Positions 427-51,600 of a stretch of DNA of 64,000 nucleotides are shown here, in pieces; position 1 is the first letter of the stretch; each line of letters starts with the position of its first letter. The notes under the pieces are model-generated. The model was not told the origin of the DNA. It was given only the letters and a program-made list of their open reading frames with translations, and searched no databases. The stretch is from Candidatus Kaiserbacteria bacterium (GTDB taxonomy: Bacteria > Patescibacteriota > Minisyncoccia > Phycocordibacterales > UBA2100). Position numbers and translations under genes: made by a program. Location of the stretch: the NCBI GenBank assembly GCA_023267655.1, contig JAHFMV010000001.1, positions 31,954 through 95,953 on the forward strand, read 5' to 3'.

Positions 427-807
427 TTATTCCATGAGCGGCCTCATATCGTCAAAGGGAGGTACATACGATGTACCATGTGCTTGGAGATATACATGCA
501 ATTTTTCTTCAAGCCGCGGAATATTTTGGTGGGCGATTTTCCATATTGTCCCAAGTTCGAGCATAAAATAATCATGCGAAATGATATTGCGTAGTCCGAC
601 AATCATCTTCCACGGTGCGTCGATCTCGTTCTGTGTATCCGCATCCAGTTTTTTCGCGAGTTCCCCGATGACTTGCAGCTGCATGATAACGGCGCTTTGC
701 GTCTTGGAGTCCGACAGAAATGCTGGTTCATCGAATCCCGTGATATATTCCGTGGCTTTCTTGCAGGCAGCTATGATGAGATCAATGTAGACATTATTGT
801 CTTTCAT
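427..807 (-). CDS. hepT: HepT-like (DUF86) toxin of a type VII HepT/MntA toxin-antitoxin pair
   Basis: 126-aa ORF with the R-x4-H-x-Y motif (GLRNIISHDYF). It overlaps the 3' end of the upstream nucleotidyltransferase gene by 14 nt. Confidence 0.75.
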   Translation of the reverse strand: MKDNNVYIDLIIAACKKATEYITGFDEPAFLSDSKTQSAVIMQLQVIGELAKKLDADTQNEIDAPWKMIVGLRNIISHDYFMLELGTIWKIAHQNIPRLEEKLHVYLQAHGTSYVPPFDDMRPLME

Positions 808-1090
808 AGATGATCTTCAAATCGCGTTTGATGTAGGGGCGCATTCGGGCGACAACCTGTGTATCCGGCACCAGATCTACTTCAACCCCCAGGATATTTT
901 TAAGGTCTTCCTCCGCCTCTTGCTTTTCAAGAAAACTAATCGGATGTCCTTCGTCAGAGAACAAGAAATCCGCATCACTATCGGCTCGATTGTCTCCTCG
1001 TGCGCGCGAACCGAAGACGCCAACCTTGCGGAAGCCGTACTTCTTGAATATTGGCCGCGCCTTCTCGACAAGTGAATCTAGATCTTCCAT
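794..1090 (-). CDS. mntA: MntA-like minimal nucleotidyltransferase antitoxin
   Basis: G-S-x9-13-D-x-D motif (GVFGSRARGDNRADSDADF). Start chosen at MEDLDSL (ATG 1088-1090). The longer ORF-track start at 1189 reads through the duplicated glycosyltransferase segment in antisense and is probably not real. Confidence 0.7.
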   Translation of the reverse strand: MEDLDSLVEKARPIFKKYGFRKVGVFGSRARGDNRADSDADFLFSDEGHPISFLEKQEAEEDLKNILGVEVDLVPDTQVVARMRPYIKRDLKIIYERQ

Positions 1091-1147
1091 ACCCACGATG
1101 GTAGCATATTTTTCGCCATATCGCTGTATGTGGTTAGGCAGGATTTT

Positions 1148-1240
1148 GCGGCCGGCGAAGCCGGCCGCGCCTTCGTCGAAAATGGCCACAGCTGGCGTGC
1201 GGTTGCAGAAAAGATTCTCGCACTCACGAGCCTCTTTTGA
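1148..1240 (+). repeat. decayed duplicate of the glycosyltransferase 3' end (gene remnant)
   Basis: 29 nt identical to 303-331 (gcggccggcgaagccggccgcgccttcgt), then about 70% identity for a further 55 nt. It translates in frame to AAGEAGRAFVENGHSWRAVAEKILALTSLF*, against AAGEAGRAFVENGRSWKSVAGKIIALYAV... in the intact gene. Confidence 0.7.
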
Positions 1241-3613: not shown

Positions 3614-5455
3614 TCAACTACAGTGGGCGAGTGAAGCACGTGTTCTAGGACCGACGGCGCCGTAGCCGGTCGTCGTCGAGGAACCGCTTGCGACAATTTC
3701 TTTGGAACGTTGGTACATCTGGACAGCGGTTTGTGTCAGCCTTCCAAAATAGCCGGTGTCGTTGCCCGGAACTAGAAGATGTCGTCCAATGAGATGCCGT
3801 TGCAGCATCGCCACGTCTGTGCCACGGAACCCAACGGAAAGATTGCGCGCGAGCACCGGACACGCGCCTGCGAGTTGCGGGGGAGAGGAGGAAGCGAGGA
3901 CCTGAACATCTGGAATTGCCGGCGGCGGCATTGTCAGCGGCATCGGATTGGATGAAGGCGGCGTGGCAGAAGAGGGAGGCGTTGCAATGGCTGGAACGGC
4001 AGGCGTACCCGGAGTCGGGGTAACCGGGCTCGAAGGTGATGCGGGCGTCAGCGACCGCCACCTGGCGTCATACTCTGCTTGCATGGCCGCGATCGTATCG
4101 CGCACCGACTTCGTGCCATATGCGGTCGTGATCACGTCGTCATAGCGATACGGAAAAATGACGTACTTCGCGTGGTAGGGATGCGGATCGACTGAAGAGC
4201 TTGGGCGCAGTGTGATCGTGTGCAGGTTCGCAAACTTGATGACTCCGTCGTTCGCTCCTTGCGCGACAGTGTACGAAACGGAGCGCGTATCATTCTTGAG
4301 CGTCGGGTCATAAAACCACGCGATCGTAACGTCGTCAGAAGAAGGACCGGAAGCGTTCTCAAACGTGACCCAGCGGAGGTCGATCTGAGGGAAGCCGGAG
4401 TTGTACCCCTGGTTCATTTGGGTGATTGAAGGGATCTCGACTTGCGCGACACCGCTCGGCGATGGCGTGAAGTACCGGCGATAGCCGCTGGTAAAGTAGA
4501 AGGTCGGCAGTTCAAAGAAGCCATTGCGCGTCTTTGCTCCTGCTCCCTTGTTCTCGATGGTGATGTCGTATGCGAGATAGTTGTCAGAAGCAGAGACGGA
4601 CTGTGCGAGATGCAACGTGTCTGCAGCATTCCAAGGTCCCGCATAACTCGGCCCGTAGTCCCAGTTCATCATGGTCATGTCGCCAAAGTCGACGTGGTTT
4701 TGCGCAAGGCTACATGATTGATCTGCAAAGCCGTCGCAGGTGATCGTGGGTGCGTTCGAGCCGGTCGCGACGATCGGAACCATGCTCGTTTGGTTGCCGA
4801 CGTACGTGCAGAAAGCACCGGCTTGAGTCGGATTCCAGTAGCCCTGATGCACGTCGCATGAACTTGCGGTGCCAACTGCACGCGCCATAGCGTTCGCGTC
4901 AGCTTCGTCCTGATCGTGGAACGCGACTTGCAAAGCGGCGCCCATGTTGGCGTGCAGGGCGTTGTGCGGCATCGGATCTTGCAGGGAGGTGCCGACGGCA
5001 CGTTTGCTGTAAAACTCGTAGGTCGCTCCGGTGTTGCGGTCGAGCTTCGCGCTGTAGGCCGACTTGTCGATCGATATCAGACGGTTTTCCGAAAATGCTG
5101 AGTAGTAGGGATCAAGCGTCACGGCCGACGAAACAAGGGTGTCCTTGAAGTCGGGGGGCGGCGCGAGCGTCGTACAGTCAGCTCCAATATCCCACAAGCG
5201 TACCAAGATGTTGGAGCCGGGCGTGCCGACCGGAAGCGGCTTCTTGAAGAGACATAATCCCGATCCGTGATCGGCGAGCGTGCAGCGATTTTGGAAATCG
5301 TTGGCGTCGGTGCCTACGAACCACACGTCTGCCGTGACTGGCGTATTTGGGCAGCCTGGGTACTGCGCCGCGAGCTGTGCTCCCACTGAATTGGCTCGTT
5401 GGGACAACAGGACCGGTTCAATCCAAGATGCTTGTGCAAAGGACGAGGCCGGCAC
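3614..5455 (-). CDS. secreted protein with a C-terminal peptidoglycan-binding domain (PG_binding_1-like) and a Pro/Thr-rich linker
   Basis: 613-aa ORF. The C-terminal LQRHLIGRHLLVPGNDTGYFGRLTQTAVQMYQ matches the PGBD consensus. An N-terminal signal-peptide-like stretch (…GTLILSSVIGATLVVPASSFA|QA) lies upstream of the track's GTG start and has no canonical ATG/GTG/TTG. Confidence 0.7.
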   Translation of the reverse strand: MPASSFAQASWIEPVLLSQRANSVGAQLAAQYPGCPNTPVTADVWFVGTDANDFQNRCTLADHGSGLCLFKKPLPVGTPGSNILVRLWDIGADCTTLAPPPDFKDTLVSSAVTLDPYYSAFSENRLISIDKSAYSAKLDRNTGATYEFYSKRAVGTSLQDPMPHNALHANMGAALQVAFHDQDEADANAMARAVGTASSCDVHQGYWNPTQAGAFCTYVGNQTSMVPIVATGSNAPTITCDGFADQSCSLAQNHVDFGDMTMMNWDYGPSYAGPWNAADTLHLAQSVSASDNYLAYDITIENKGAGAKTRNGFFELPTFYFTSGYRRYFTPSPSGVAQVEIPSITQMNQGYNSGFPQIDLRWVTFENASGPSSDDVTIAWFYDPTLKNDTRSVSYTVAQGANDGVIKFANLHTITLRPSSSVDPHPYHAKYVIFPYRYDDVITTAYGTKSVRDTIAAMQAEYDARWRSLTPASPSSPVTPTPGTPAVPAIATPPSSATPPSSNPMPLTMPPPAIPDVQVLASSSPPQLAGACPVLARNLSVGFRGTDVAMLQRHLIGRHLLVPGNDTGYFGRLTQTAVQMYQRSKEIVASGSSTTTGYGAVGPRTRASLAHCS

Positions 5456-5537: not shown

Positions 5538-8500
5538 TTACTCGTTGACAGCTGTGGGTGTGGCCACATCGACGTTGGGCTCATTGTCGTTCGCGGCTGG
5601 TGGAACAGGTGGATCATTCTCCACTGCTCCCTCCTCGCTTCCCGCAGTGCCATCTCCGGTCTCGGTCGGAGTGGTGGGGCCGGTGCTGGTTGCGGTCGGG
5701 GAACTATCCGTCGACGGCGTCGTTGACGCGGTGTCCGCATGTATCTCCAATGCGGATGAGCCGCCGGGCGCTCCAGCTGATCCTCCCGGTCCTGTTGTTG
5801 CAGCGCCGGCGGCTGATGCTGAGAGCATCGCTTTGAGCTGGTCTTCATTGACGCATGTGTCGTTGATGCAGAGTGCATCCTTTGCGCGGAAGACGCGTGC
5901 AAATACTTCGCCGATGCCGTTGGTGGCGTCGGCGAGCCACTGTGTCAGCCGCGCAAAGAGGGAAGCGAAGAAGCGGCTGGTGAAGGTGCCTTCCGGGATT
6001 TCGGGCGTGGTAGTCGCGAGGTCTTCGAGTTTGAGGTTGAGGTCTTGGATCGCCTTTGCGAGGAGGGGCGTGATGCGGCCGTAGTCAACGCTCCACGGCG
6101 TCGAGGTTGCCCCGAGCGGGTCGATGCCGTTGTCGCCGTTGGTGGTCACGGCCCACGGGAAGACCTGTTGCAATTCCTGCGCGATGAAGCCCGTGGTCGT
6201 CGCGTGTGCCGGGTCGGTGATGAAGTCGAAGTCGCGCACCGTGAGACGCATCAGCGCGTCCAGCCCCAGCGTCGTCGTCGCGATGTTCTCTTTGATGCGG
6301 CGATCCGAAGAGGTGTTGTAAGAGACGATGCTTTCATTTTGCGCGATGTTGCCTGCCACCCCGCCCGAGGTATTTAGGAACAACACCGACGAGCCGCTAT
6401 AACTGGCACTCGTGCTCCTCATTGTAATGGCTTGTTGTGTGCTAGCGTTCCAACTTAAATATAATTTTGATCCATCGGAAGTTGCGCCGATGCCGACGTT
6501 GCCGGCGCTGTTCGCGTTGAGCGAAAGTGTCGACCCTTCAATTGCAAGTGGCTTATATACGGCTCCCGCACGGTCGTAAGCGCGGACCTGGCCTGACGTT
6601 CCGTCCCACGTAAGCTCCGTGCCGACACCGTTCGTTGGTGCCACCTGACTCGTCGCGCGTATCGTGCCAAAGACGTCCAATTTTCCGGTTGGAGTAGTTG
6701 TGCCGATGCCGACGTTGCCGCCGCCCGTGACAACAAAATGCGTGGCGGTCGAGGAGCCGATCACAAATTCAGGGACGCCACTGCCGAGGGCATTTGGATT
6801 GACGGAGAGGAGGGCCCACGGACTTGTCGTGCCGATGCCGACGTTGCCGGCGTTCAATGTCATGACATCGCCACCGGTGCGGGTGTAGAGACGGATTTGA
6901 TCCGTTTGCGACGTGGGCCGGTAAATTCCTCCCGCTTCGAGACTATCCGACTGGAACGACAGTGCACTCAAAGATGCGTTAGGTGAATTTATAACTGAAT
7001 ACGTATTGCCTGTGCTCGAGACCACTAATGTCTTGGCGGGCGACGTGGTGCCGATGCCGACGTTGCCGCTGGAGTTAACGAGGAAGTAGGTGGCCGTGCT
7101 GGAGCCGATGGCGAAGGAGTTGATGCCTGCGGCTGCATGCACGCTCAGCTGCGCCCACGGGGACGTGGTGGCTATTCCGAATTTCCCGGCGCTGTATGCC
7201 GAGCCGTCGTTGTTCACCTGGAAGAGAGTAGTCGACGCGGAGTTCGCGACGAGGAATGATTGCGTTGAAGCCGATGTGTCAGAGCCCCAGAGCGTGAGTT
7301 TAGAGTATGGGGTGGAGGTGCCGATGCCGACGAGGTCGGTGCTATCGGCGAGGAATGATTGTGTGTTGTCGTTTTGCCAGCCGCCGGCGGTGGCGTTTAC
7401 GGGTGCGATGAGGGCGCCGGTGAAGTAGGTCGCAGCTGCAGTACCGTCAATTATTGTCCCGTCAGTAGTGCCACGTGCTTCGATATAGTCCGTTGTGCCG
7501 TTCATATCAACAACGGCTGTTGCCATGCCCGTGGCGTCAAAACTACTGCCGCGATAACGGCCAACCCCAACTGGGATCGCATTTTTGTATATTGATCCAT
7601 CGCAGTATGCGACTGAAACGGACTGGCCAAAATCTCCGCAACGAACCGAGAGAGTGATGATGTACTTGCCTGGGACTGTCGGCGTGAATTTGTTCGAGGC
7701 GAAATTGTTATTGGTGTCGAATGTCTCTGTGGACCAGGTCAAAGCAGTGTCGACGTTCGCCGACACCGTCTGATCCGTCCCGTTCTTGTTCACACTAAAA
7801 CTCGGCCCACTGGTAGCGGTCGTGACGCCCTGCCACGTGCCGCCGGAGTTCTTGAACTCGAGCATGCCCGCGTTGTCGCGGAAGCCGTAGCCCGAGGTGC
7901 CTTCGGTCGCGCCGAAGTTCAGATAACCGCTTGCCGGGAAAAGCGCGTTGCCGCTCGCCGTGAACGTCGTCGTCGCCGTGCCGCCGAAGTATGCGCTGTA
8001 TGCAGAGAGCATTGTCGTCGAAGCTCCGCCGTTGAAGAGCGTGAGCGTTGTTGTTGCGCTCGTCCCTGCGACCGCGTGGGTAAAGGGATCGCCGCCCGAG
8101 CCGGAGCCGCATGCGGACGCATTTGCCGAGACCGTGCCGTCGCTACCCACTTGCAAGCAGCGCGTTCCCGTCCCGCCTGTGTTCGAGATCACGAGCGCCG
8201 TCGTCGATGCGGTCGTAGCGGAGAGCATCGTTGTCGATGCGAAGGGGATTGAAAGTGCCGTGCCCGCGGGTGCGGCGAAGTTGATGGTGAGATTTGATCC
8301 GCCAACGAGTGCACCGGCAGTTCCGGAGAACGAAAGCGCGGTGCCGGCCGACAAGGAACTTGTCGCGACCGATTGATACGCAGTGCTACCGCCGTACAAG
8401 AGTTGTGAGACGGGAGCGGTCGTGGTGCCGGTACCACCTTTCGCGATTGTGAGCGTTCCCGTGATTGTCGAGAGCGTGGAGGTTGCGATCCACGACGGCT

Positions 8501-11417
8501 TGCCGTTTTGGAGCGTGAGCACCAGGCCGTCAGTGGAAGAGGCAAGCGTGGTGAGCGAGCTTGCGGAGTTCGCGTAGAGAAGATCACCGGAGGTGAACGA
8601 CGAGAGACCGGTGCCACCCTTGTTTGCGGCGATCGTCGTCGCGTTCCACGTGCCTGTCCCGATCGTTCCGAGCGTCGTGACGTTCGTTGACCCTGCCCAC
8701 GTCGAGAGCGCGGTGTTCTCGACGTTGTTGAGGGCGAGCGTTGACTTGAGATTTGCGGTTGAGGTGCCGGCGAGCGTACCGGTGCCGGATGCAAAGAGGA
8801 CATCACCAAGCGTGTAAGAGGTGAGGCCCGTGCCACCGGAGGCGACACCGAGCGTGCCGCTGATGTTCGCGAGCGTCGTGGTGGATACCCATGTTGGTGT
8901 TCCAGAGACGAGCCCAAGGACTTGGCCGTTGGTACCGGCTGATGTTGTCGCGACAGGGCCGGTACCGTTGCCGAGGACGACTGCACCGCTTGCGACGTTC
9001 GCCCAGCCGGTGCCGCCGTTTGATACGCCGAGGATGCCGGTGACATTCGACGCGAGATCGACGAGTGCGGTGGTGATCGATCCCGCAGTTGCTTTGAGAA
9101 ACCCGGAGAGTGCACCGATTGAGAGGTTGCCGAAGAAGCCGCTCGTTGATGAGGCGTACGTTGCGGAGAGGTTGGTGGTCGAGGCGGTGCCGAGTGTAGC
9201 CTTGCCGGTCACGTCGAGCGTGCCGGCGATCGCGACATTGCCTGCCGTGTCGATCGTCGTCGATGCGGTCGCACCGAACTTCGCTTGGAGGGCGGAGAGA
9301 AGTGTTGAAGATGCTTGTTGAATATTGGTGACGTACGTCGTGGTTGTCGGCGCGAGGAAGTTGCCGGAGACTTCCCACGACTTGCCGAAAAGAGATGACA
9401 CGGCAGCGTAATCCGTGCCGGCGACGGCCGAGGTGACTTGGCCTCCCGTTGTTGTTTTCAGGAGTGAGCCACTGTTGATGCCGGAGATCCACAAGTTGGT
9501 GGAGCTCGCGGTTGTTGCCGTGATCATTGTTGTGGAGGCGAAAGGAAGCGAGCTCGCGATGCCGTCGCCGCGGATTGTGGTGGTGGCGGTGCGGCCGATA
9601 GCGACGTAGTCGAAGGCATCGAGCCGCGTTGTTGTTGCGTTCGTCGCAACGAGGGTGGTGGATGTGAGGTTAGTGATTGTCGCCGCGACGGATGAGAGTG
9701 TGTCGATGATGCCCGTTGTGAAGCGGCCGAGTGTCGCGAAAAGATTTGTCGATGTCGCATTGGTCGCTGTGGCGTTGGTGAAATCCGCGTTCACGAAGTG
9801 CGAGGTCGATGAGGCGAAGAGACCGGATTGCGCCCAGATGATGGATGAGGTCGCGGCGGCGAGTTGTCCGTAGTTCGAAAGGAACGTGAAGGGTGACGCG
9901 GAACCGACCGCAGTGTCGTCCGATCCGCAGATCACATTGCCGTTTGCATCGGTCTGCAGAAGTTGTCCCGACGACGAGCAATCGAGGCCGGAGAGTGTGA
10001 GACCGCCGGCGAGACGGATGCCGTTTGCAAATGTCGATGTTGCTGTTGTTGACGTGACATTGAGTGCGGTTGTTTGCAGACCCGCGCCGAAGGTCGAGGT
10101 TGCGCTGCCGAGAATTGTTGTCGTTGCGGTGCGGCCGACAAAGATGCCATCCAGTGATGAGAGTGCGGTGGTTGATGCGCCGCCACCCAAGAGGACGAGT
10201 GAGGTGGTTGCGCTTTGTCCTGCGACCGCATGCGTCCACGCATCGTACGATGCAAGACCGCCACCACCGCTCGTGATGCCGAGCGATGAAGTGGCAGCAA
10301 GATTATAGCCGCCGGAAGAATTTCCCAATAACAGTTGACCGTATGTCGGAGACGCTGATGTTGCGGTGCCGCCTTTCGCGATTGCGAGAACGCCGGAGAA
10401 ATCCGTTGCCGTGATTGATCCGCCGGTGATCGTTGCACCACTGATCGTGCCGCCATCGATTGTGGGGGAGTGGAGTTTAGTGTCTGTGAGTTCTTCGATG
10501 CGACCGACGCTGCCTACGGTTTGGTAGATCGTCTGGCTTTCGGAATGTGATGCCGCGGCGACGCTCGCGATTTGTGATTGGAGCGATGTTGCGAGTGCGG
10601 TCATGCGTGCATCCAGTAGAGCGGCGTTGATCCCACCTTCGGTGACGGTGCGGACGGTTTCGCGGATGCGTTCGATGACCGGATTGTTGACCACTGTTAG
10701 AGAGCGCTGCGCCTCTAACGTGGCAGGTTTGGTTGTTGGGGATGACCCTTTCTCTGAAGAGGTTGAGAGCGTTGTTGCTGGTGGTGGCGGCGCTCCGGTT
10801 GGTGGTTGCAGATGTTGTTGCGTCGAAGGTGTTGCGATTTCTGTGGGCGAACAGTTTCCGATGATCGGGCACACCGCGTTGAAAACATTTGATGCAAGCG
10901 CATCGATCCACGGAAGCGATGCGACGGCTGCGAGTTGCGATTGGATATTTTCCGGTGCGTGTGTTGCTGCGTCGACGGCTGCGGCGAATTTTTGTGGCGC
11001 GATGTTTTGAAAGGCGAGGGCGCCGGATGCCATGACCGCGAAGAGCGTAAGTGTTGCGAGAAATGCAGTGCCCGCGGCACGCACGCGTTGTGCGCGTTTG
11101 ATGTGTTGTTTGAAGCGGTCGTTGAGTTCGCGGTGTGGTGCGACGGTGATTGGAGATGTTACGGCGTGGCCGTTGGCACGCTCCTCTTTGCGGAGTTCGC
11201 GAGTTCTCTCGCGCAATGCATCTTTTCGGCGGGCTTGGTTCGCGCGCCATTCTGAAAGTGACGCAGGATTGACGTACCACTCGCGGCCTTCAAGCCTGCC
11301 GTGGACGACGCCCTTGCGACATAGGCGGCTGATGTAGTCAGCGGAAATTTCGACACCAGTTGCGGCGTCTCTCACGGAAACGAAGCGCACACCGGCCACA
11401 ATAATTTCAGATGACAT
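5538..11417 (-). CDS. giant (1959 aa) membrane-anchored tail-fibre-like surface protein with N-terminal excisionase-like HTH, one TM helix, GNVGIGT(T/A)SP beta-repeats and a Peptidase S74 intramolecular-chaperone domain
   Basis: ATG at 11415-11417. Residues 1-60 resemble the HTH_17/excisionase fold (…VSVRDAATGVEISADYISRLCRKGVVHGRLEGREWYV…). TM helix AAGTAFLATLTLFAVMASGALAF. Four or more GNVGIG(T/A)TSP repeats. SSDRRIKENI…GFIAQELQQVFPWAV matches the phage endosialidase/tail-fibre chaperone (S74) autoproteolysis module, about 6310-5990 nt. Confidence 0.85.
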   Translation of the reverse strand: MSSEIIVAGVRFVSVRDAATGVEISADYISRLCRKGVVHGRLEGREWYVNPASLSEWRANQARRKDALRERTRELRKEERANGHAVTSPITVAPHRELNDRFKQHIKRAQRVRAAGTAFLATLTLFAVMASGALAFQNIAPQKFAAAVDAATHAPENIQSQLAAVASLPWIDALASNVFNAVCPIIGNCSPTEIATPSTQQHLQPPTGAPPPPATTLSTSSEKGSSPTTKPATLEAQRSLTVVNNPVIERIRETVRTVTEGGINAALLDARMTALATSLQSQIASVAAASHSESQTIYQTVGSVGRIEELTDTKLHSPTIDGGTISGATITGGSITATDFSGVLAIAKGGTATSASPTYGQLLLGNSSGGYNLAATSSLGITSGGGGLASYDAWTHAVAGQSATTSLVLLGGGASTTALSSLDGIFVGRTATTTILGSATSTFGAGLQTTALNVTSTTATSTFANGIRLAGGLTLSGLDCSSSGQLLQTDANGNVICGSDDTAVGSASPFTFLSNYGQLAAATSSIIWAQSGLFASSTSHFVNADFTNATATNATSTNLFATLGRFTTGIIDTLSSVAATITNLTSTTLVATNATTTRLDAFDYVAIGRTATTTIRGDGIASSLPFASTTMITATTASSTNLWISGINSGSLLKTTTGGQVTSAVAGTDYAAVSSLFGKSWEVSGNFLAPTTTTYVTNIQQASSTLLSALQAKFGATASTTIDTAGNVAIAGTLDVTGKATLGTASTTNLSATYASSTSGFFGNLSIGALSGFLKATAGSITTALVDLASNVTGILGVSNGGTGWANVASGAVVLGNGTGPVATTSAGTNGQVLGLVSGTPTWVSTTTLANISGTLGVASGGTGLTSYTLGDVLFASGTGTLAGTSTANLKSTLALNNVENTALSTWAGSTNVTTLGTIGTGTWNATTIAANKGGTGLSSFTSGDLLYANSASSLTTLASSTDGLVLTLQNGKPSWIATSTLSTITGTLTIAKGGTGTTTAPVSQLLYGGSTAYQSVATSSLSAGTALSFSGTAGALVGGSNLTINFAAPAGTALSIPFASTTMLSATTASTTALVISNTGGTGTRCLQVGSDGTVSANASACGSGSGGDPFTHAVAGTSATTTLTLFNGGASTTMLSAYSAYFGGTATTTFTASGNALFPASGYLNFGATEGTSGYGFRDNAGMLEFKNSGGTWQGVTTATSGPSFSVNKNGTDQTVSANVDTALTWSTETFDTNNNFASNKFTPTVPGKYIITLSVRCGDFGQSVSVAYCDGSIYKNAIPVGVGRYRGSSFDATGMATAVVDMNGTTDYIEARGTTDGTIIDGTAAATYFTGALIAPVNATAGGWQNDNTQSFLADSTDLVGIGTSTPYSKLTLWGSDTSASTQSFLVANSASTTLFQVNNDGSAYSAGKFGIATTSPWAQLSVHAAAGINSFAIGSSTATYFLVNSSGNVGIGTTSPAKTLVVSSTGNTYSVINSPNASLSALSFQSDSLEAGGIYRPTSQTDQIRLYTRTGGDVMTLNAGNVGIGTTSPWALLSVNPNALGSGVPEFVIGSSTATHFVVTGGGNVGIGTTTPTGKLDVFGTIRATSQVAPTNGVGTELTWDGTSGQVRAYDRAGAVYKPLAIEGSTLSLNANSAGNVGIGATSDGSKLYLSWNASTQQAITMRSTSASYSGSSVLFLNTSGGVAGNIAQNESIVSYNTSSDRRIKENIATTTLGLDALMRLTVRDFDFITDPAHATTTGFIAQELQQVFPWAVTTNGDNGIDPLGATSTPWSVDYGRITPLLAKAIQDLNLKLEDLATTTPEIPEGTFTSRFFASLFARLTQWLADATNGIGEVFARVFRAKDALCINDTCVNEDQLKAMLSASAAGAATTGPGGSAGAPGGSSALEIHADTASTTPSTDSSPTATSTGPTTPTETGDGTAGSEEGAVENDPPVPPAANDNEPNVDVATPTAVNE

Positions 11418-11889
11418 GATTATTCGGAAAGCCTAGGTATTGCCTAGAATTTCCGTCATTGGCTCATGATAGCGTGCCACCGTCTGGCAGTGTGCGGTTA
11501 TCCACTTTCAAGTGGAGCGCGGGATGGTATCGCGCTAGCTGGTACAGCGGAGCCGGAGTCCACATCGTGCATACCGTATGCGCCGATTTTCCTCGGAAAT
11601 GAGTGTCACCACGACCATCACGCGAAGCCTTCAGTCGATGTGGCTTGTGATCTCGACCAGCGGTTCTCGAGCGGCTTCTATCGCCAGCTTATGCGCACTT
11701 TACATCCGAGATTCGTTGTTCATATATACCCGGAATAGCTAGCATTTACATGATATCTCGGTATCTCGGGTCATAGTACGGGAGGCGGCCAAATTGCGGT
11801 GCACAACGCCATAACGCAATTGAGTGCGCCAGCGCTGGAGCGACACGCGCTCGTCGATTTGGAGTTGGCGGAAGTTACACTGTAGAGAT

Positions 11890-11930
11890 AAAGCAGGTGC
11901 ACGTTTTCCAGATGACGAGCGCCTTCATGG
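11890..11930 (+). repeat. decayed duplicate of the 3' end of the monooxygenase gene (12744-12790)
   Basis: Identical 21-mer gcacgttttccagatgacgag at 11898-11918 and 12748-12768, with about 85% identity over about 36 bp. The reverse translation MKALVIWKTCTCF… compares with GMDALVIWKTCIYLITNMF in the intact gene. Confidence 0.6.
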
Positions 11931-11955
11931 TGCGAAATCATGGTATAATCGCGAA

Positions 11956-12243
11956 ATGCGCATTACGGAAGCACAGGCACGGCTGCTGAAAGAAGGGGTC
12001 CGCGAATACCTGCCACAGGCGAGTGTGTATCTGTTCGGGTCGCGTGCGGACGATGCGAAGCGTGGCGGCGACATTGACGTGCTTGTCGTAGGGGAGCGGC
12101 CGCTTCAACCTTTAGAGAGCAGCCGCGTCAAGGCGAGATTTTATGAACGTTTCGGAGAGCAGAAAATCGACATTGTGAGTTTCGCAGAGGGCGAACATAC
12201 CACGTTCCGCGATCTGATAGAATCCGAGGCGGTGCCTCTCTGA
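11956..12243 (+). CDS. mntA: MntA-like nucleotidyltransferase antitoxin (second copy)
   Basis: MRITEAQARLLKEGVREYLPQASVYLFGSRADDAKRGGDIDVLVVGE carries the GS…D.D motif. It is preceded by TGgTATAAT at 11941-11949, only 6 nt before the ATG, which implies a leaderless mRNA. Confidence 0.7.
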   Translation: MRITEAQARLLKEGVREYLPQASVYLFGSRADDAKRGGDIDVLVVGERPLQPLESSRVKARFYERFGEQKIDIVSFAEGEHTTFRDLIESEAVPL

Positions 12244-12244
12244 A

Positions 12245-12700
12245 ATGCATATGCCCGATACCGCGAACATCAAACGCGCCCTCCTCGAGAATGTTGCATC
12301 GCTGCAGCGCGCGGGGCGCGTCTTGGCGCGTTCATACGAGAAATGCCGCACCATCACAGTTCCTTTCCCAGCCGAAGACGACGAGATGCTCGAAACCATA
12401 GAAGCGTTGACTTCGCGCTTCGCGCGCGCCTCCGATATCTTGACACAGCGAGTCGGCAAATCGATCGTCGCGCTTTCTCGCGAAGATGCGCCGTCTATTA
12501 TTGATAGGATACACCTCATGGAGAAAATCGGCGCGATCGCAAGCGAAAATACGCTCATCGCGATCCGAGACGTTCGCAATGAAATCGCGCACGAATATAC
12601 CGAAGAAGGCGTACAGAAAGTATTTGAAAAATGCATGCCGCTCGTACCGCAGCTCCTCGTGATGATTGATTCGGTCGCGAAGTACGCTGAGAAACTATAA
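12245..12700 (+). CDS. hepT: HepT-like (DUF86) toxin (second copy)
   Basis: R-x4-H-x-Y motif (IRDVRNEIAHEY). The start is 1 nt after the stop of the upstream mntA. Confidence 0.7.
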   Translation: MHMPDTANIKRALLENVASLQRAGRVLARSYEKCRTITVPFPAEDDEMLETIEALTSRFARASDILTQRVGKSIVALSREDAPSIIDRIHLMEKIGAIASENTLIAIRDVRNEIAHEYTEEGVQKVFEKCMPLVPQLLVMIDSVAKYAEKL

Positions 12701-43632: not shown

Positions 43633-46218
43633 ATGGCATCCGCTCTTCGCGTAGGTCTTTTTGCGTCGTTACTGTTCGTCGCTTGTGTAATCGCGTATCC
43701 GACTATTTCGCGCGCGACCGGCACCCAAGCAGATCAGCAATGCCAGCCCGGCGGGAAAATTGGCCAGAAGTGCACTGACAACACTCATGGATACAAGACA
43801 CAAGGAAAGTGCGCGTATGTGTACGTCTGCAAAGCAGACAGTGTCCCCAGCAACGAACCACCGCTGTGTACCGGCGGCGGGAAAGACTGTCCCGTTGGCG
43901 GACCGTCACCATCAAATTTCAATCCGTACCCCAAGGCGATCAAAATTGCATCGGGTTCGCCATCCATCCCGACTTCGAGCATCTCTGATCTTGAAAAAGG
44001 AGTCCTTGGTGCTGCATTTGCATCTGATGAAGCGACGCCGACCGACCTTGCAGATTTAAGTGCCTCCGCCAACGTGTCGTTGAAAACGATATTGGATGCG
44101 CAAGGAGAAGACTCGAGCGATGCGCTCGCATTCGTCCCCGAATCATTTCAAAAAGAAACGAGCACGCTTTTTGCAGGACTGCGCGAAAATGCGGTAACGC
44201 TCGGACCCGGGCAAAAGCCAACCGTCGCCGTGGATGCGTTAGGAAATGTGCGTCTCGCGTTTCCATCGAATGATGGCACATCGTTCGGTGCGACTTTCGA
44301 TGCATCCAGCGATGAAAATTCTACCGGCATATCTTTTGCAGACGATCTGATACTCGCCGCCACCAATGCACCGCGGCATTTCGCGCTCGGTTTCTATCAC
44401 GCGGGACAAGCCGCGCTCATGGTTGTGCTTGCGGATTTTTCGAGTGCGCGGGCAGAGTGGAATGTGGCGACCGAAAATTTGACGTCCGCAGCCGAGGATT
44501 TGTGGAATGTACTTCGCGCACTGTGGGAGATGCTCGTGCAGTTTATCCAGCGGTCCGTGACAGCCTATGCACAAGAGGACGATGCAAATGCCGATTGCAC
44601 ACCAGGTGAGTATCGATACGAATACACGAAACGCGACGCTCCGTGTGACAAAGAGAAATGCATGTTGCACGCGCCATGTGCCGGCTCATTTGCGCGTGGC
44701 ATCTGCGCGAGCGAAGGGAAATGCAACGCAACGAGCGTGAAAATATGCGATTCAAATTCGGGAACGTGTTCGTGGACAACGCCGCAACAAACAGCGCTCC
44801 CCGGCAGTACCGCAACGCCAAGCACCCCGCTTCCGCCGCCGGTGACTGGCGATCAGCCGCTTCCGATCAGCCCCGAATTACAAAATGCATTTTCAGATAA
44901 CGCGAAACAACAGGCAGACGCGCAGGCGCGCATCGACGCGGCACAGCAAAAATTGATGGAAGCGTTCAATAATTTGCAAAATGATCCGCAGAATTATTCA
45001 GCGCGATTTGACGACGTACGGAGCGCACAAAAAGAACTGTTAGATGCGCAGCGTGCGCTCAATCCGACACTCAAAGATTACCTGCTGCAAAATGTCGCGC
45101 CGCGCATGACGCCGACGGAACTTCTGCCTGACGGGAATTCAGCACCGATTATGCGGTATGAATGGATCAACAATCTCGGTTCAGCGCCTGCCCCGTTCGA
45201 GGCCGTAGGCTCTCAAACGGGGTTCGCGCCGTTTAAGGTGGCGCAATTAGGAGACGGCCCACCGATTCCGCTGTTGTCCGACGAAGCGCTCCAGAATGAG
45301 CTCGAACTGCGTAAGCTTTCGATCGACGCGGCAAATGAACTTCGCGGCGGCATGTATGCACCGAATGGCGTCAGTCCATTTTCCTTTGCACCACCCGGTT
45401 CGCTCACTATGCCGCCGGAAGAGCCGCTCACGGTGACAAACTATTCGTTTGATTCGATCAGCGATGCGGTTACGGCTGGCGTGAAGTGTCTCTTTGGCAC
45501 GTGTCCGACGCCGCTTTCTAATTCAGTGCCATTTGGCGGTTTAAATTCCATTGCAGATTTCGGACTGACCGAGCCGTTTGTCGTGAGCGGTAATTTAACC
45601 GAGCCACAGACGCCACCATGGACAGGCGAGACCTCGCTTACCGAACCCGAATTGAAAAAGCTGCTTGAGCAAGAGGGAAAGGGTCCGCCGCTTCCTACAG
45701 CGCCCACACCGACCGAGACCGCGCAACCTTCACCGAAGCCGCAAAATCCTCAGACACAAACGCCGCAGCCGACTCCACAACCACAAACTCCAGAGCGACC
45801 GGCAACACCAAGCGCCGCTCCGTCAGGTAAAACGAATGCGGGCACGGGCGGATTTTCATTACAGTCGTTGCTGCCATCACTCTGGAGCGTTCTCGCGAAT
45901 CTTTTTAACTATCTTCGAGACGGAAATGCGGCAAATACCAATCCTTCAACCCCTCAAAATCCTCCAGCACCCGCCCCCACCGCATCGCTCTCAATCGATC
46001 CGTCGCGCATTTCAATAGGCACCGTCACGCGCCTCATGTGGTCGTGTACGAATGCCGATTCCAGCGTCATCTATCTTTCCGATGGCACCGCCTATATTCG
46101 CGACGGTGTAAACGGCACTGCGACCACCTCACCGCTTTCTGTCACCACCACTTTCCGCCTCGTCTGCTCGGGCCACGGCGGCTCCGCCGAAAATTCTTCG
46201 ACGGTCACGGTGCAATAA
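43633..46218 (+). CDS. secreted 861-aa Cys-rich / Pro-rich protein with a C-terminal Ig-like domain shared with the 5021-aa giant
   Basis: Signal peptide MASALRVGLFASLLFVACVIAYPTISRATG. Cys-rich N-terminal modules. The C-terminal ~85 aa SLSIDPSRISIGTVTRLMWSCTNADSSVIYLSDGTAYIRDG…TFRLVCSGHGGSAENSSTVTVQ parallels …VTLTAKPTSVDSGKTAQLSWSGENIANCTIYGPG…FGIACSGSDGTSITSATVTVKV in the giant. Confidence 0.7.
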   Translation: MASALRVGLFASLLFVACVIAYPTISRATGTQADQQCQPGGKIGQKCTDNTHGYKTQGKCAYVYVCKADSVPSNEPPLCTGGGKDCPVGGPSPSNFNPYPKAIKIASGSPSIPTSSISDLEKGVLGAAFASDEATPTDLADLSASANVSLKTILDAQGEDSSDALAFVPESFQKETSTLFAGLRENAVTLGPGQKPTVAVDALGNVRLAFPSNDGTSFGATFDASSDENSTGISFADDLILAATNAPRHFALGFYHAGQAALMVVLADFSSARAEWNVATENLTSAAEDLWNVLRALWEMLVQFIQRSVTAYAQEDDANADCTPGEYRYEYTKRDAPCDKEKCMLHAPCAGSFARGICASEGKCNATSVKICDSNSGTCSWTTPQQTALPGSTATPSTPLPPPVTGDQPLPISPELQNAFSDNAKQQADAQARIDAAQQKLMEAFNNLQNDPQNYSARFDDVRSAQKELLDAQRALNPTLKDYLLQNVAPRMTPTELLPDGNSAPIMRYEWINNLGSAPAPFEAVGSQTGFAPFKVAQLGDGPPIPLLSDEALQNELELRKLSIDAANELRGGMYAPNGVSPFSFAPPGSLTMPPEEPLTVTNYSFDSISDAVTAGVKCLFGTCPTPLSNSVPFGGLNSIADFGLTEPFVVSGNLTEPQTPPWTGETSLTEPELKKLLEQEGKGPPLPTAPTPTETAQPSPKPQNPQTQTPQPTPQPQTPERPATPSAAPSGKTNAGTGGFSLQSLLPSLWSVLANLFNYLRDGNAANTNPSTPQNPPAPAPTASLSIDPSRISIGTVTRLMWSCTNADSSVIYLSDGTAYIRDGVNGTATTSPLSVTTTFRLVCSGHGGSAENSSTVTVQ

Positions 46219-48531: not shown

Positions 48532-48670
48532 ACGCTCTCAACACCCCACAGAACCTGCGCCATTTTGCGGCATAAAAACGTACTACAATACGAGTAATGA
48601 TAGGCGCGAACAGGGCCGCGTATTTTTGTGTGGGTGCAACTCTCTTTTTTGCTGTTTTTTGTGCATTCAT
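48532..48670 (+). promoter_or_regulatory. native 5' leader/promoter and start of the 5021-aa gene (copy C of the triplicated module)
   Basis: TTTTGCGG…TACAAT then acgagta then ATG at 48597. The -10-like hexamer sits only 7 nt from the ATG, which implies a leaderless or near-leaderless transcript. Confidence 0.55.
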
Positions 48671-51600
48671 TTTAATTTCAGGAACAGTGGATGCGCTTGG
48701 GACCGCGAGCGGAAGTGCGGGTAGCGGAGCGGATAAAACATGCAAATGGAATCCGACGACAAAAAAGTACGAAGATAACGGATGTATTGCAGAAAAAGGG
48801 AAGTGTAACGACAAAGGAAAATGTGAACTGCAAAAAGATTCAGGAGGGGCTGCAAACTGCAAAGACGCTGCAGGGCAAACTGGCTGCGGAGGACTTAATC
48901 AACCCGGGAGCGTGCAGCCCGCGAGCCAACCTTCAACGCTTCAACCAACTCCGTCGATTTTGGACAATCCGCTCCCGCCGCAACCCTCGACAATTGATCC
49001 GACAAAGGCATTTAATGACTCGAGCGCATATAACGATCCAAACGCTTTGACTCCGGCGACAGAAAACAAACCTATCTGGCAACGCGCATGGGACTATCTG
49101 ACCAAGCCTCAACCCGTACCCGCGTCTCCGGGTTATATCAACGGATCTGAAGATTTTGGTGCGCCATCAGGTAGTGATGCGAAAACGTTGCAGCCGGTGA
49201 ATCCGCTGGACGCAAACGACCCGCGAAATCAACTCGTCCCTCCGCCTGGGCAACAAGGAAGCACGTTCGGGCCCGATGAATCTGGGATGATAACTGGTTC
49301 AAATGAAATAGCTGATGCATCGTACCTGGATCGGATTGAAAAGAAAATAGCCGATTCCGCGGAGAAATTCGTTAATTGGCTGACAGCACCGGCCGAGCCG
49401 GTGTACGGGCCGACGGACTCGGGGGAGCAATTGAAGCAGTCTCCATTTCCGCAGCGAGAAGTATATCAAGACGCCGATGGAATGTTCAGGTATCGAGATA
49501 CGGGCGAGCTTGCCTCGGAAACAGACGTGGCACGAGTGCCTTCGGAAACATCCAAACCCTTTGAAACTCGTCCGCCGGAAGAGCTTACAAAACCATACGA
49601 CGATGCAGTCGATAAACTTCGGGGTGCGCGGGAGAAATATGTCGACGAATTAAAAAAGATTGAAGGGTATCAGAAACAAGCCGAAGCTGATGCGGCGAAG
49701 CTTCAAGCGATGAAAGATAAAGGAACCCAGACGGTACCCTACGAAGGAGGTGCAACGAAGAATATAAATGATGCAATCCGAGACAACAATGCACGACTCG
49801 AGCGTATCGCGAATGCTTATAACGATGTCGACGGCCGCATTAATGGGATCGATGATCGTATTGATGCGGCAGCAGTCGGTAAGCAAGATGCAATAGATCG
49901 ATGGGGAGCACTTCAGGACGGAACGAAGCCAACGCTCGCTTCCGAGGTTAATGCCGCGGCGTTTCGGGCTCTCGATAAAATGACTGCAGATTTGAATGCA
50001 CAATATCCTGACGAAATGACCGGATCGGTATCGCCGGAAGGATACAATAAATTACAAGAAGGCTTGCAAAAGGTGGAGACGCTTCGCGAAGTTGTTGCTG
50101 CTCCACCAGGTAATCGACCCGACATCGTTCTTCAAGTAGAACGATTCAAATACAGCGCCTATTTTGCGGAAGCGCAGCAGAACGCGAAAGAACTCCAAGC
50201 AGAATATAATCGATTGACAGCACTCGATGGTCTTGAAGGGGGATCATCACCGGAAACGCTACGCGCAAAAGCCTCGCTCGCGGCGGCGCAAGAAGATTTA
50301 AAACAGCGAACCATCATGGCGGTCGGTGTGAGCGAGCTCTCGCGACAATATCAGGATTTGCAAGGAGCAGCGCTTGCAGCAGCACAAGGTACAGATTCTA
50401 AGGTCCTCGAAGATATTCAGGCAAGAATGGCAAAAATCGAATCAGTCATTCCGCAACTCCAGATGGGAGATATTGCGCCCGATCCGCGGTACGCGGAACT
50501 CCAAAAACAACTGCAACTTGAAGCAGAAAATATTTCGAAAATCGCTAACGCATCATCGTTTCAACCTGATGGGAGTATTTTACCCTCGTCTGACCTTGCT
50601 GATGCGCAAAAAAGGCAGGCTGACCTACAGGCGGAGTTAAAAAGTATAAACGGAACTCTGTACAATCGGTTAGAGAATTTAGCCGTGGGTCGCGCATTGG
50701 AAGACGCGCGTGTTCAGCAGGTTCGGTACGAATTTGGAAATGCGGCAAACGCACCAAGCCTCAAGGATCCGACGGCACTGAAGGCATCGGATTGGTATAC
50801 TCTCGCGGGAATTTCAGGTAATCAGGTAGGACATATTGCAGACAGACTCTCGGACATTGCCACCAATGACGCCGTAACAATACTTCAGCACAATCCCTTC
50901 GAATTTAACACTGGCAATAAGTTCCTCGATTTCTTTGCAAATCAACCAGCTGGAATTTACGAATCATTCGCAAATGTCTTTTCACTTGGCAAGTTGTCGA
51001 CGGATCCGGCGCAACAACTTGGGTTGTATACGGGCACGGAACAAGCTATCAAATACGGTATTGATGGGGTAAATGTCGGACTGACCCCGTTTCTCATACG
51101 CGACATTGCGGCTGTTACTGTCGGTCTTGGTAGACTTGGTTACGAAGGCTTGGCTGCCCGACTTGGCACCGAGGATTTGAGCGCGCTTGAAATTGCCTCA
51201 GCTGCGGATGCTCGACTTCTCGGAGAAAATCTCGCGCGAGCAGAAACACGCGTGCTGGATTCGACGGGGCTAGCTGATTACGGCGCGAACGTTGCCGCGC
51301 GTGATCTTGCCGTGCAAGAGCTTAAACAAGCAAACCTCGGGCTCAGCGTAAAAGGCGACGTTGTCGATCTGAATACAGGCCAGACGCTCTCGTTCCGCGA
51401 TGCAGCGGGCCGATATTCGGAAATAGGATCTGCGGAAGCTGATGCCGTCGCAGCCCTCCGAACCGAAGAACTTCGTCCATCGGTATTCTCAAAAGACTTT
51501 TATACAAACTTGTCAAATGACGTCAGAAACTTTTTTGCAAAGCCCACCGACGAGCAGTTACTGGCAAATGCAGAGACTCGTGTACAGTCGCTAGAGCGAA

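Follow-up and report, generated by a model that had tools for sequence, protein, structure and literature searches.

Fibres carrying the Peptidase_S74 (S74) chaperone are known from bacteriophages, among them endosialidase endoNF, gp37 of phage S16 and the neck appendage of phage GA-1, in which the chaperone bears a Ser-Lys dyad at i/i+5 spacing and a GxIAQ motif and a repeat stalk lies directly upstream. The same traits are present in the distal half of a 1959-residue protein (hereafter the giant protein) encoded in the 64,000-nucleotide stretch of Candidatus Kaiserbacteria DNA analyzed here (the window; contig JAHFMV010000001.1, positions 31,954 to 95,953). Unlike the phage fibres, the giant protein has a predicted cytoplasmic helix-turn-helix (HTH) head and an N-terminal transmembrane (TM) anchor, is encoded in a housekeeping-gene setting, continues for ~165 extra residues after the chaperone and is 3-6 times longer than typical fibres. 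Judged by its sequence, the distal half is a member of the phage S74 tail-fibre class, and the giant protein is not a virion fibre. We propose that it is probably a homotrimeric host-attachment fibre with a self-cleaving chaperone and a cytoplasmic head of DNA-binding type, a reading that we hold as a whole with fair confidence.

Other described systems share parts of this plan. In MYRF a single chain unites a DNA-binding domain, one TM helix and an S74 domain for self-cleavage and trimerisation; its dyad (S587/K592) and the GVIAQ of its trimerisation region recur in phage endosialidase-type proteins, and in both a Ser-Lys dyad at such spacing cuts at the Ser (PMC3742440). However, MYRF is ordered as DNA-binding domain, chaperone and TM helix, and cleavage frees the DNA-binding domain, whereas the giant protein runs from HTH (1-62) and TM helix (116-136) through the fibre to the chaperone (1703-1795), and cleavage would shed an extracellular fragment. 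A MYRF-like layout, with the chaperone between DNA-binding domain and membrane, was therefore rejected. The DNA-binding domains are also of unrelated types, Ndt80-like in MYRF and an excisionase-type winged HTH in the giant protein. The bitopic regulators ToxR, CadC and TcpP likewise place an N-terminal cytoplasmic domain of DNA-binding type before a single TM helix and an extracytoplasmic domain (a topology that we assign to the giant protein by the positive-inside rule), but theirs is an OmpR/PhoB-type winged helix with a small periplasmic sensor, and not an HTH_17-type domain with a fibre of ~1,800 residues. Small excisionase-family proteins such as Xis, AlpA and BldC have the fold and the HTH_17 signature of residues 1-62, and stand-alone HTH proteins also occur in the split relatives described below; in contrast, the HTH of the giant protein is fused through a basic helix to a TM helix, and the window holds no integrase or att context. 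BclA and F-BclA of Bacillus resemble the giant protein in carrying a trimer-type gC1q fold on a repetitive stalk for display at the cell surface, yet BclA has a collagen-like stalk and exosporium attachment and is without S74, the TM/HTH head and the GNVGIG stalk. Giant membrane proteins of bacteria from the Candidate Phyla Radiation (CPR), which the giant protein resembles, have been proposed as host-attachment factors (PMC8080830). No description of S74 or HTH_17 in CPR giant proteins was found in the literature. The gene and its parts are arranged as follows.

5538..11417, reverse strand: whole gene, 1959 codons plus stop, ATG start (open reading frame (ORF) call)
11425..11455, no strand assigned: 13-nt inverted repeat with 5-nt spacer, 8-38 nt upstream of the ATG, over the sole sigma70-like site
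11232..11417, reverse strand: residues 1-62, excisionase/MerR-type winged HTH, predicted cytoplasmic (HTH_17 family and fold evidence)
11073..11231, reverse strand: residues 63-115, long basic helix and linker (AlphaFold2 (AF2) helices 51-86 and 96-109; net charge +6)
within 11073..11231, reverse strand: residues 91-94 (TVAP), a junction that is a stop followed by a Met start in near relatives (L003, L054, L055)
11010..11072, reverse strand: residues 116-136, single TM signal-anchor, predicted N-in/C-out (sole hydrophobic segment; positive-inside bias of the family)
10428..11009, reverse strand: residues 137-330, Pro/Thr-rich linker, then conserved neck (NNPVIERIRE...), common to 22 homologues
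7803..10427, reverse strand: residues 331-1205, Thr/Gly/Ala/Ser-rich beta-repeat shaft with five GGTG/GGTA units (composition, repeat listing)
7401..7802, reverse strand: residues 1206-1339, predicted gC1q/TNF-like jelly-roll knob (family profile, AF2, Foldseek)
6312..7400, reverse strand: residues 1340-1702, distal stalk with four GNVGIG(T/A)T(S/T) units (repeat positions, homologues, phage tail-fibre ORFs)
6033..6311, reverse strand: residues 1703-1795, intramolecular chaperone, Peptidase_S74 (Pfam, dyad, GFIAQ, alignment with 6f45)
6306-6308 and 6291-6293, reverse strand: codons of Ser1704 and Lys1709, the S74 dyad
5541..6032, reverse strand: residues 1796-1959, post-chaperone tail, conserved in 13 homologues

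The first-pass annotation of this DNA had called four domains, namely the HTH, the TM helix, the repeats and S74, and all four are present at the positions that it gave. For S74, the Pfam profile matches residues 1704-1757 with E=1.2e-11 and 45.2 bits against a cut-off of 22. SSDRRIKENI begins at residue 1703 and sets Ser1704 and Lys1709 at i/i+5 spacing (S1704-D-R-R-I-K1709), a GFIAQ at residue 1743 fits the conserved GxIAQ trimerisation motif, and an alignment pairs the stretch with 'SSDRRIKKDI...GLIAQE' from the chaperone region of phage S16 gp37 (PDB 6f45). On every sequence criterion examined, including the profile score and the dyad spacing by which the earlier S74 call could be checked, the module belongs to Peptidase_S74. 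Six giant proteins whose remainder is only ~25-31% identical have modules that match it at 70-81% identity, and its guanine-cytosine content at third codon positions (GC3) is 0.86 vs 0.67 for the whole gene, a pattern compatible with cassette exchange or else with very strong constraint on the module. The tail behind it has amphipathic helices and a CINDTC motif, ends in an acidic stretch of low complexity, and would be shed along with the chaperone upon self-cleavage.

Upstream of the chaperone, the repeat region described earlier as rich in Gly, Thr, Ser and Ala proved to have that composition, with T 19%, G 14%, A 13% and S 13% over residues 330-1250. The GGTG/GGTA units of the shaft stand at residues 349, 801, 861, 934 and 994, and shaft-like homologous stretches occur in many giant proteins of Patescibacteria. 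Where at least four GNVGIG units had been reported, exactly four were located, at residues 1451, 1524, 1567 and 1639; the stalk that they form is common to many homologues and to phage tail-fibre ORFs. The neck is found even in an HTH-less protein of Methylocystis, one of the 22 homologues that share it.

Between shaft and stalk, residues 1206-1339 are, by family profile and structural model, a gC1q/TNF-like knob that the first-pass annotation had missed. The knob fragment alone gave no Pfam match, and 9 of 34 aligned knob homologues match Pfam C1q (PF00386). The profile of the family finds C1QL1 in the PDB (E=8e-8), and the AF2 model (predicted local distance difference test (pLDDT) 86) superposes in Foldseek on the gC1q domains of Caprin-2 and C1QL proteins with TMt ~0.8. 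The same fold matches the spike knob of phage phi812, the binding domain of a cyanophage short tail fibre and Bacillus F-BclA (9h38). gC1q domains are trimer-forming heads, and the knob therefore offers an indication of a fibre trimer that is independent of the chaperone; the trimeric surface fibre suggested earlier gains support from it, at the level of sequence and model. Relatives of the knob number 44, mostly stand-alone proteins of 144-316 aa, which may be fibre-tip or accessory proteins of phages. In the IMG/VR database, 42 contigs encode relatives of the knob, 7 of which also span the stalk and S74 region (residues ~1203-1805). The two contigs inspected, L021 and L033, are genuine phage fragments with genes for an amidase, virion structural proteins and tail-fibre proteins; in L021 (7848-9549) a C1q-like ORF of 175 aa lies directly upstream of an S74 tail-fibre ORF of 341 aa, an order that matches the knob-then-S74 order of the giant protein. 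These homologues of knob, stalk and S74 in phage contigs point to a phage origin of the distal modules.

At the other end of the chain, HTH_17 matches residues 13-61 with 19.1 bits in the full protein and 24.9 bits in the isolated N-terminus, the Pfam cut-off being 27. Among the homologues returned, 55 have the ~90-residue start of the giant protein at their own N-terminus. An alignment was made of 49 such N-termini, of which 42 match HTH_17 at E<=0.01 (best E 1.6e-10); W47 is invariant, conservation reaches at least 90% at A18, D27 and Y28, and the consensus reads YIS..(E)AA...G...DYI.RLCR.GK..G...G..WYV...SL..F. The head gave no significant match in the PDB with either phmmer or the family profile, so that a search by fold was needed. 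The AF2 model built on the 49 sequences (pLDDT 91.9) shows a beta-beta-alpha-alpha-beta-beta topology followed by a long helix at residues 51-86 and a second at 96-109. In Foldseek it superposes on Pukovnik Xis (4j2n; TMt 0.68-0.70, root-mean-square deviation 1.8 Å, probability at least 0.98), on BldC (6amk; TMt 0.73, probability at least 0.98), on the excisionase RdfS (8dgl; probability at least 0.98) and on TraN (4pm3). By family and modelled fold, residues 1-62 are an excisionase/MerR-type winged HTH. Net charge is +4 over residues 1-65 and positive in 38 of the 49 homologues, the sole further hint that the cytoplasmic head, as predicted, most likely binds DNA.

The topology is consistent throughout the family. 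Only residues 112-137 rise above a Kyte-Doolittle value of 1.6 (peak 1.99), and KQHIKRAQRVR sits on the N-terminal side of the TM helix. A hydrophobic segment follows the HTH in the 55 homologues, nearly always as a single one, at residue ~100-200, and among the top 150 representatives found with a profile of the head it follows the last HTH copy in 129. When Lys and Arg were counted in the 15 residues flanking the TM segment, the N-flank exceeded the C-flank in 37 giant homologues (9 showed the reverse) and in 113 of the top representatives (vs 10). Moreover, a folded N-terminal domain of 110 residues without a preceding signal peptide is unlikely to be exported. By the positive-inside rule, the N-terminus would be cytoplasmic and the remaining ~1,820 residues extracytoplasmic, in line with the arrangement first proposed, HTH inside and fibre outside, both for the single protein and for the family. 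One homologue, P0138, carries the source label trimeric autotransporter adhesin. We rejected this identity for the giant protein: such adhesins have an N-terminal signal peptide and are anchored by a C-terminal beta-barrel in the outer membrane, whereas here an N-terminal TM helix serves as anchor and the chain ends in S74 and an acidic tail; the Pfam families of such adhesins found no match in the giant protein.

The head proved to be common in this lineage. Among 1.84 billion cluster representatives, its profile matched 12,726 proteins at E<=1e-3, of which 5,878 also passed a limit of 1e-10 and 454 one of 1e-30. All of the top 150 representatives carry a tandem double HTH; most are of ~310-350 aa with only ~50 residues outside, and the rest, with GNVGIG repeats and S74, are giants that range from 1,974 to 7,214 aa. 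Among 120 giant homologues the head occurs in 60 and the S74 module in 24, and 16 combine the two in the full architecture of HTH, TM and S74; the named homologues come from Kaiserbacteria, Paceibacter(ota), Wolfebacteria and Taylorbacteria. The first-pass annotation had called the architecture unusual, which these counts contradict for the lineage: the plan of HTH, TM helix and fibre is unusual among bacteria at large, not within Patescibacteria. By sequence comparison the HTH-helix-TM head is a module found across the lineage, with the fibre among its cargoes. The head is also the Patescibacteria-specific part, as far as sequences indicate: the Methylocystis protein has the same neck, fibre and S74 yet a plain hydrophobic N-terminus, and on a contig binned as Alphaproteobacteria, where the fibre homologue is full of frameshifts, the head profile found no match in the 24.9-kb locus. 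The giant protein is richer than first described, and the main value of its analysis lies in the large undescribed HTH-helix-TM family that it exposed.

Two cases illustrate how this family is arranged. A gene for a 336-aa protein with two HTH copies and a TM helix (L051/L052) and a gene for a 7,214-aa protein with two HTH copies, TM helix, fibre and S74 (L053) are each the next gene downstream of obg-gatB, in different Patescibacteria genomes, which suggests that this one syntenic slot has seen ectodomains grow or collapse. A Kaiserbacteria contig of 12.6 kb (L004) carries three head genes, encoding a giant of at least 1185 aa, a 2xHTH protein of 311-325 aa and a giant of 1583 aa, in what looks like local paralogue clustering.

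In three near relatives (L003, L054 and L055) the HTH is a separate ORF of 67-95 aa, and a stop stands one codon ahead of the fibre ORF, which then opens with the conserved MPxRELN(D/A)RFK and encodes TM helix and fibre. The junction of L003 (9710-10001) reads ...ALT, stop (TAA), RMPRRELNDRFK in the same frame; that of L054 (2794-3001), behind a 67-aa HTH_17 ORF, reads ...ALTA, stop, DMPHRELNDRFK; and in L055 (~1250-1508) it reads ...AAFA, stop, HMPQRKELNARFK, with the HTH upstream in another frame. The equivalent residues in the window, T91-V92-A93-P94-H95-R96-E97-L98-N99, are one continuous chain. Termination-reinitiation, readthrough and gene fission are all options for the split junction. 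The existence of fused and split versions indicates that HTH and fibre are functionally coupled, and the separate ORF in three near relatives shows that no covalent tether is required.

Regarding its surroundings, the fibre gene is chromosomal and lies in an ordinary cellular context. The window encodes folP, folK, an ATP-grasp ligase, DsbD- and thioredoxin-like proteins, metK, cofD, nth-like glycosylases, RNase J, a solute-binding protein and groEL, whose product is 87% identical to a protein labelled 'Patescibacteria group bacterium' and ~70% identical to those of Kaiserbacteria. Genes for capsid, portal, terminase, tail or baseplate were not found within the 64 kb, of which 5.5 kb are visible 3' of the gene; a prophage, the circumstance named in the first-pass annotation as fatal to its view, did not appear among these housekeeping genes. 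Searches of the giant protein gave no match in NCBIfam and a single weak one in PHROGs, to a family of unknown function, and Pfam on seven ectodomain fragments offered no family for shaft, knob, stalk or tail. PHROGs on the flanking ORFs returned only weak matches, one via the PG-binding domain of a neighbour and two via a glycosyltransferase-like ORF at 107-409, and tRNA and Rfam scans of the window returned nothing.

Within this context, the segment at 1.9-11.4 kb stands out by a GC content of 0.58-0.61 vs ~0.51 and a GC3 of 0.66-0.79 vs ~0.5-0.63 elsewhere. It comprises three genes, for a PDDEXK/Zn-ribbon protein, a PG_binding_1 protein and the giant fibre, and is bracketed by MNT-HepT/HEPN toxin-antitoxin pairs at 427-1189 (reverse strand) and 11824-12700 (forward strand). 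We regard the segment as a possible variable island, around which neither an integrase nor a tRNA nor a flanking repeat turned up. Nothing points to a composite element, the two MNT-HepT pairs being unrelated and not repeats of each other. Homologues elsewhere often have integrases, recombinases or relaxases in their vicinity, or else Abi genes, toxin-antitoxin genes or a diversity-generating retroelement, with no conserved neighbour; in L007 (340-1732), the DNA 4-9 kb upstream of homologue P0030 holds such a retroelement (bAvd and reverse transcriptase) together with a serine recombinase and ArdC. The gene directly downstream of the fibre (3614-5455, reverse strand) encodes a protein of ~590-613 aa whose N-terminal region has no family assignment and whose C-terminal PG_binding_1 domain gave a weak match to a PHROG endolysin family. 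No conserved operon partner emerged, this protein and the PDDEXK protein being absent beside homologues. At 1836-1883 of the window, at the left edge of the high-GC segment, a 49-nt GC-rich stretch with a terminal T-run resembles a terminator and is 94% identical to L006 8027-8075, just upstream of the frameshifted fibre homologue in the Alphaproteobacteria-binned metagenome-assembled genome, the surrounding DNA being 71-78% identical in patches. Farther along the window, a 5021-aa ORF (48597-63662, forward strand) is hydrophobic in one segment at its N-terminus and in another near its C-terminus, and contains long low-complexity stretches rich in Pro, Thr and Ala; it lacks the HTH head and was ruled out as a paralogue of the fibre. 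The adjoining 861-aa ORF (43633-46218) has no Pfam match.

The inverted repeat upstream of the gene folds as RNA with -18.6 kcal/mol (z=-2.8). A repeat of like geometry but different sequence occupies the same place in L003 (9671-9703; z=-1.7), and both consist of 13-14 nt with a 5-nt spacer and end ~7 nt upstream of the start codon. As a lead only, the repeat is a candidate operator or a 5' hairpin over the ribosome-binding region. Upstream direct repeats that would fit a trimeric or cooperative binder of the Xis type gave nothing convincing; there is the one palindrome, whose sequence is not conserved in homologues.

Taken together, we hypothesize that the giant protein would be inserted as a type-II (N-in/C-out) membrane protein and threaded out from N- to C-terminus via Sec, with the chaperone the last to emerge. 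Three chaperone domains would then associate and nucleate folding of stalk, knob and shaft back toward the membrane, as in phage fibres, and self-cleavage at Ser1704 would shed residues 1704-1959. The mature trimeric fibre would project from the cell and mediate attachment to a host or partner cell or to a surface, while the HTH head would remain in the cytoplasm and bind DNA. The structural part of this mechanism is, in our view, highly probable. Attachment is the most likely role because phage fibres made of the same modules bind cell surfaces, and we regard it as reasonably probable by that analogy. For the HTH, autoregulation of the fibre gene, tethering of the nucleoid or of a locus to the membrane and action as a released factor are the options, each of them doubtful at best. 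Several points weigh against the proposal. The attribution of host attachment draws on analogy with phage fibres and on ideas about CPR giant proteins (PMC8080830), and the knob is located in the middle of the fibre and not at its tip. For the head, the excisionase-type HTH_17 fold claimed by the first-pass annotation stands on the 42 of 49 family matches and on AF2 and Foldseek, whereas the score of the giant protein taken alone falls under the Pfam gathering score, and the Foldseek E-values are weak for a 60-aa HTH (0.04-0.15) despite high probabilities and TM-scores.

The same evidence can be read in other ways. A cytoplasmic HTH, one TM helix and a giant ectodomain with an autoproteolytic module would also fit a contact-sensing tethered transcription factor of the Notch, RsgI or MYRF kind, in which engagement of the fibre, or force upon it, would lead to juxtamembrane and intramembrane proteolysis that frees the HTH; the conservation of the HTH-TM head in ~12,700 clusters and the overlap of the palindrome with a promoter-like site agree with this. 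However, the S74 site lies ~1,570 residues outside the membrane, so that a cut at this point cannot set the HTH free, and the coupling to transcriptional sensing that the first-pass annotation had thought possible is not supported as first worded. The window ORFs scanned showed neither a site-2 protease nor a partner gene, many members of the family have an ectodomain of only ~50 aa, and the split relatives would make soluble HTH constitutively. We consider such a factor improbable, and equally so the wider proposal that giant head proteins are contact sensors whose phage-derived trimeric fibre would report host engagement across the membrane to a DNA-binding head, be it through oligomerisation state, force-dependent proteolysis or an effect that the nascent head exerts on its own locus during translation. 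The head could instead be a generic membrane anchor or organiser of Patescibacteria, tethering the nucleoid or a locus or docking a partner, with no signalling and the fibre as one cargo. It precedes ectodomains of ~50 to ~7,000 aa, often as a tandem duplicate, the 336-aa form and the 7,214-aa giant occupy the same obg-gatB-adjacent slot, and the Methylocystis relative carries neck, fibre and S74 on a plain hydrophobic N-terminus. An anchor of this kind would nevertheless leave unexplained the translationally coupled, separate HTH ORF before the fibre gene in near relatives, and the strict conservation of recognition-helix residues (D27, Y28, RLCR, W47) suggests a specific ligand; we find it unlikely, though worth keeping in mind.

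Two further explanations concern the nature of the gene itself. The S74 module, the GNVGIG stalk and the C1q-like knob are all phage tail-fibre modules, and with the raised GC and GC3 at 1.9-11.4 kb, the two flanking MNT-HepT pairs and the integrases, recombinases or relaxases often found near homologues they might indicate a virion tail fibre of an integrated prophage or a component of a tailocin. A cytoplasmic N-terminal domain with a TM anchor is incompatible with a soluble virion fibre, which would dock by its N-terminus on a baseplate or tail, and phage structural or packaging genes are missing from the 64 kb, 5.5 kb of which cover the left side of the gene, which makes this origin very unlikely. 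That HTH and fibre are really two genes, joined by a sequencing or assembly error or left as a degenerate pseudogene, is hardly credible. The stop codon exactly at the junction in three near relatives would suit such an artefact, but the identical 1959-aa protein is called in the NCBI and ENA assemblies (contigs of 160.5 kb and 9.8 kb), the ORF runs without interruption across 5.9 kb, and the same fusion recurs in at least 55 homologues and in 129 of the top 150 representatives. The self-cleaving, membrane-anchored trimeric fibre with a cytoplasmic head is the reading that we prefer over all of these.

Little is known of how ultrasmall CPR/Patescibacteria recognize and hold their hosts, and most of their giant surface proteins lack annotation. 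The anatomy of this locus, with a putative chaperone-folded trimeric fibre bearing a gC1q-like knob, a lineage-wide HTH-helix-TM head that ties this fibre, physically or genetically, to a domain of DNA-binding type, and a probable exchange of modules with phages, gives one such protein a describable form, and its S74 module is open to simple biochemistry (S1704A/K1709A). Should the head bind DNA, a phylum in which very few regulators are known would have a major new class of bitopic regulators or tethers; otherwise the head would be a new type of membrane anchor. Were the contact-sensor reading true, the giant head proteins would be a bacterial functional analogue of Notch and MYRF built from phage parts and controlling the episymbiotic lifestyle.

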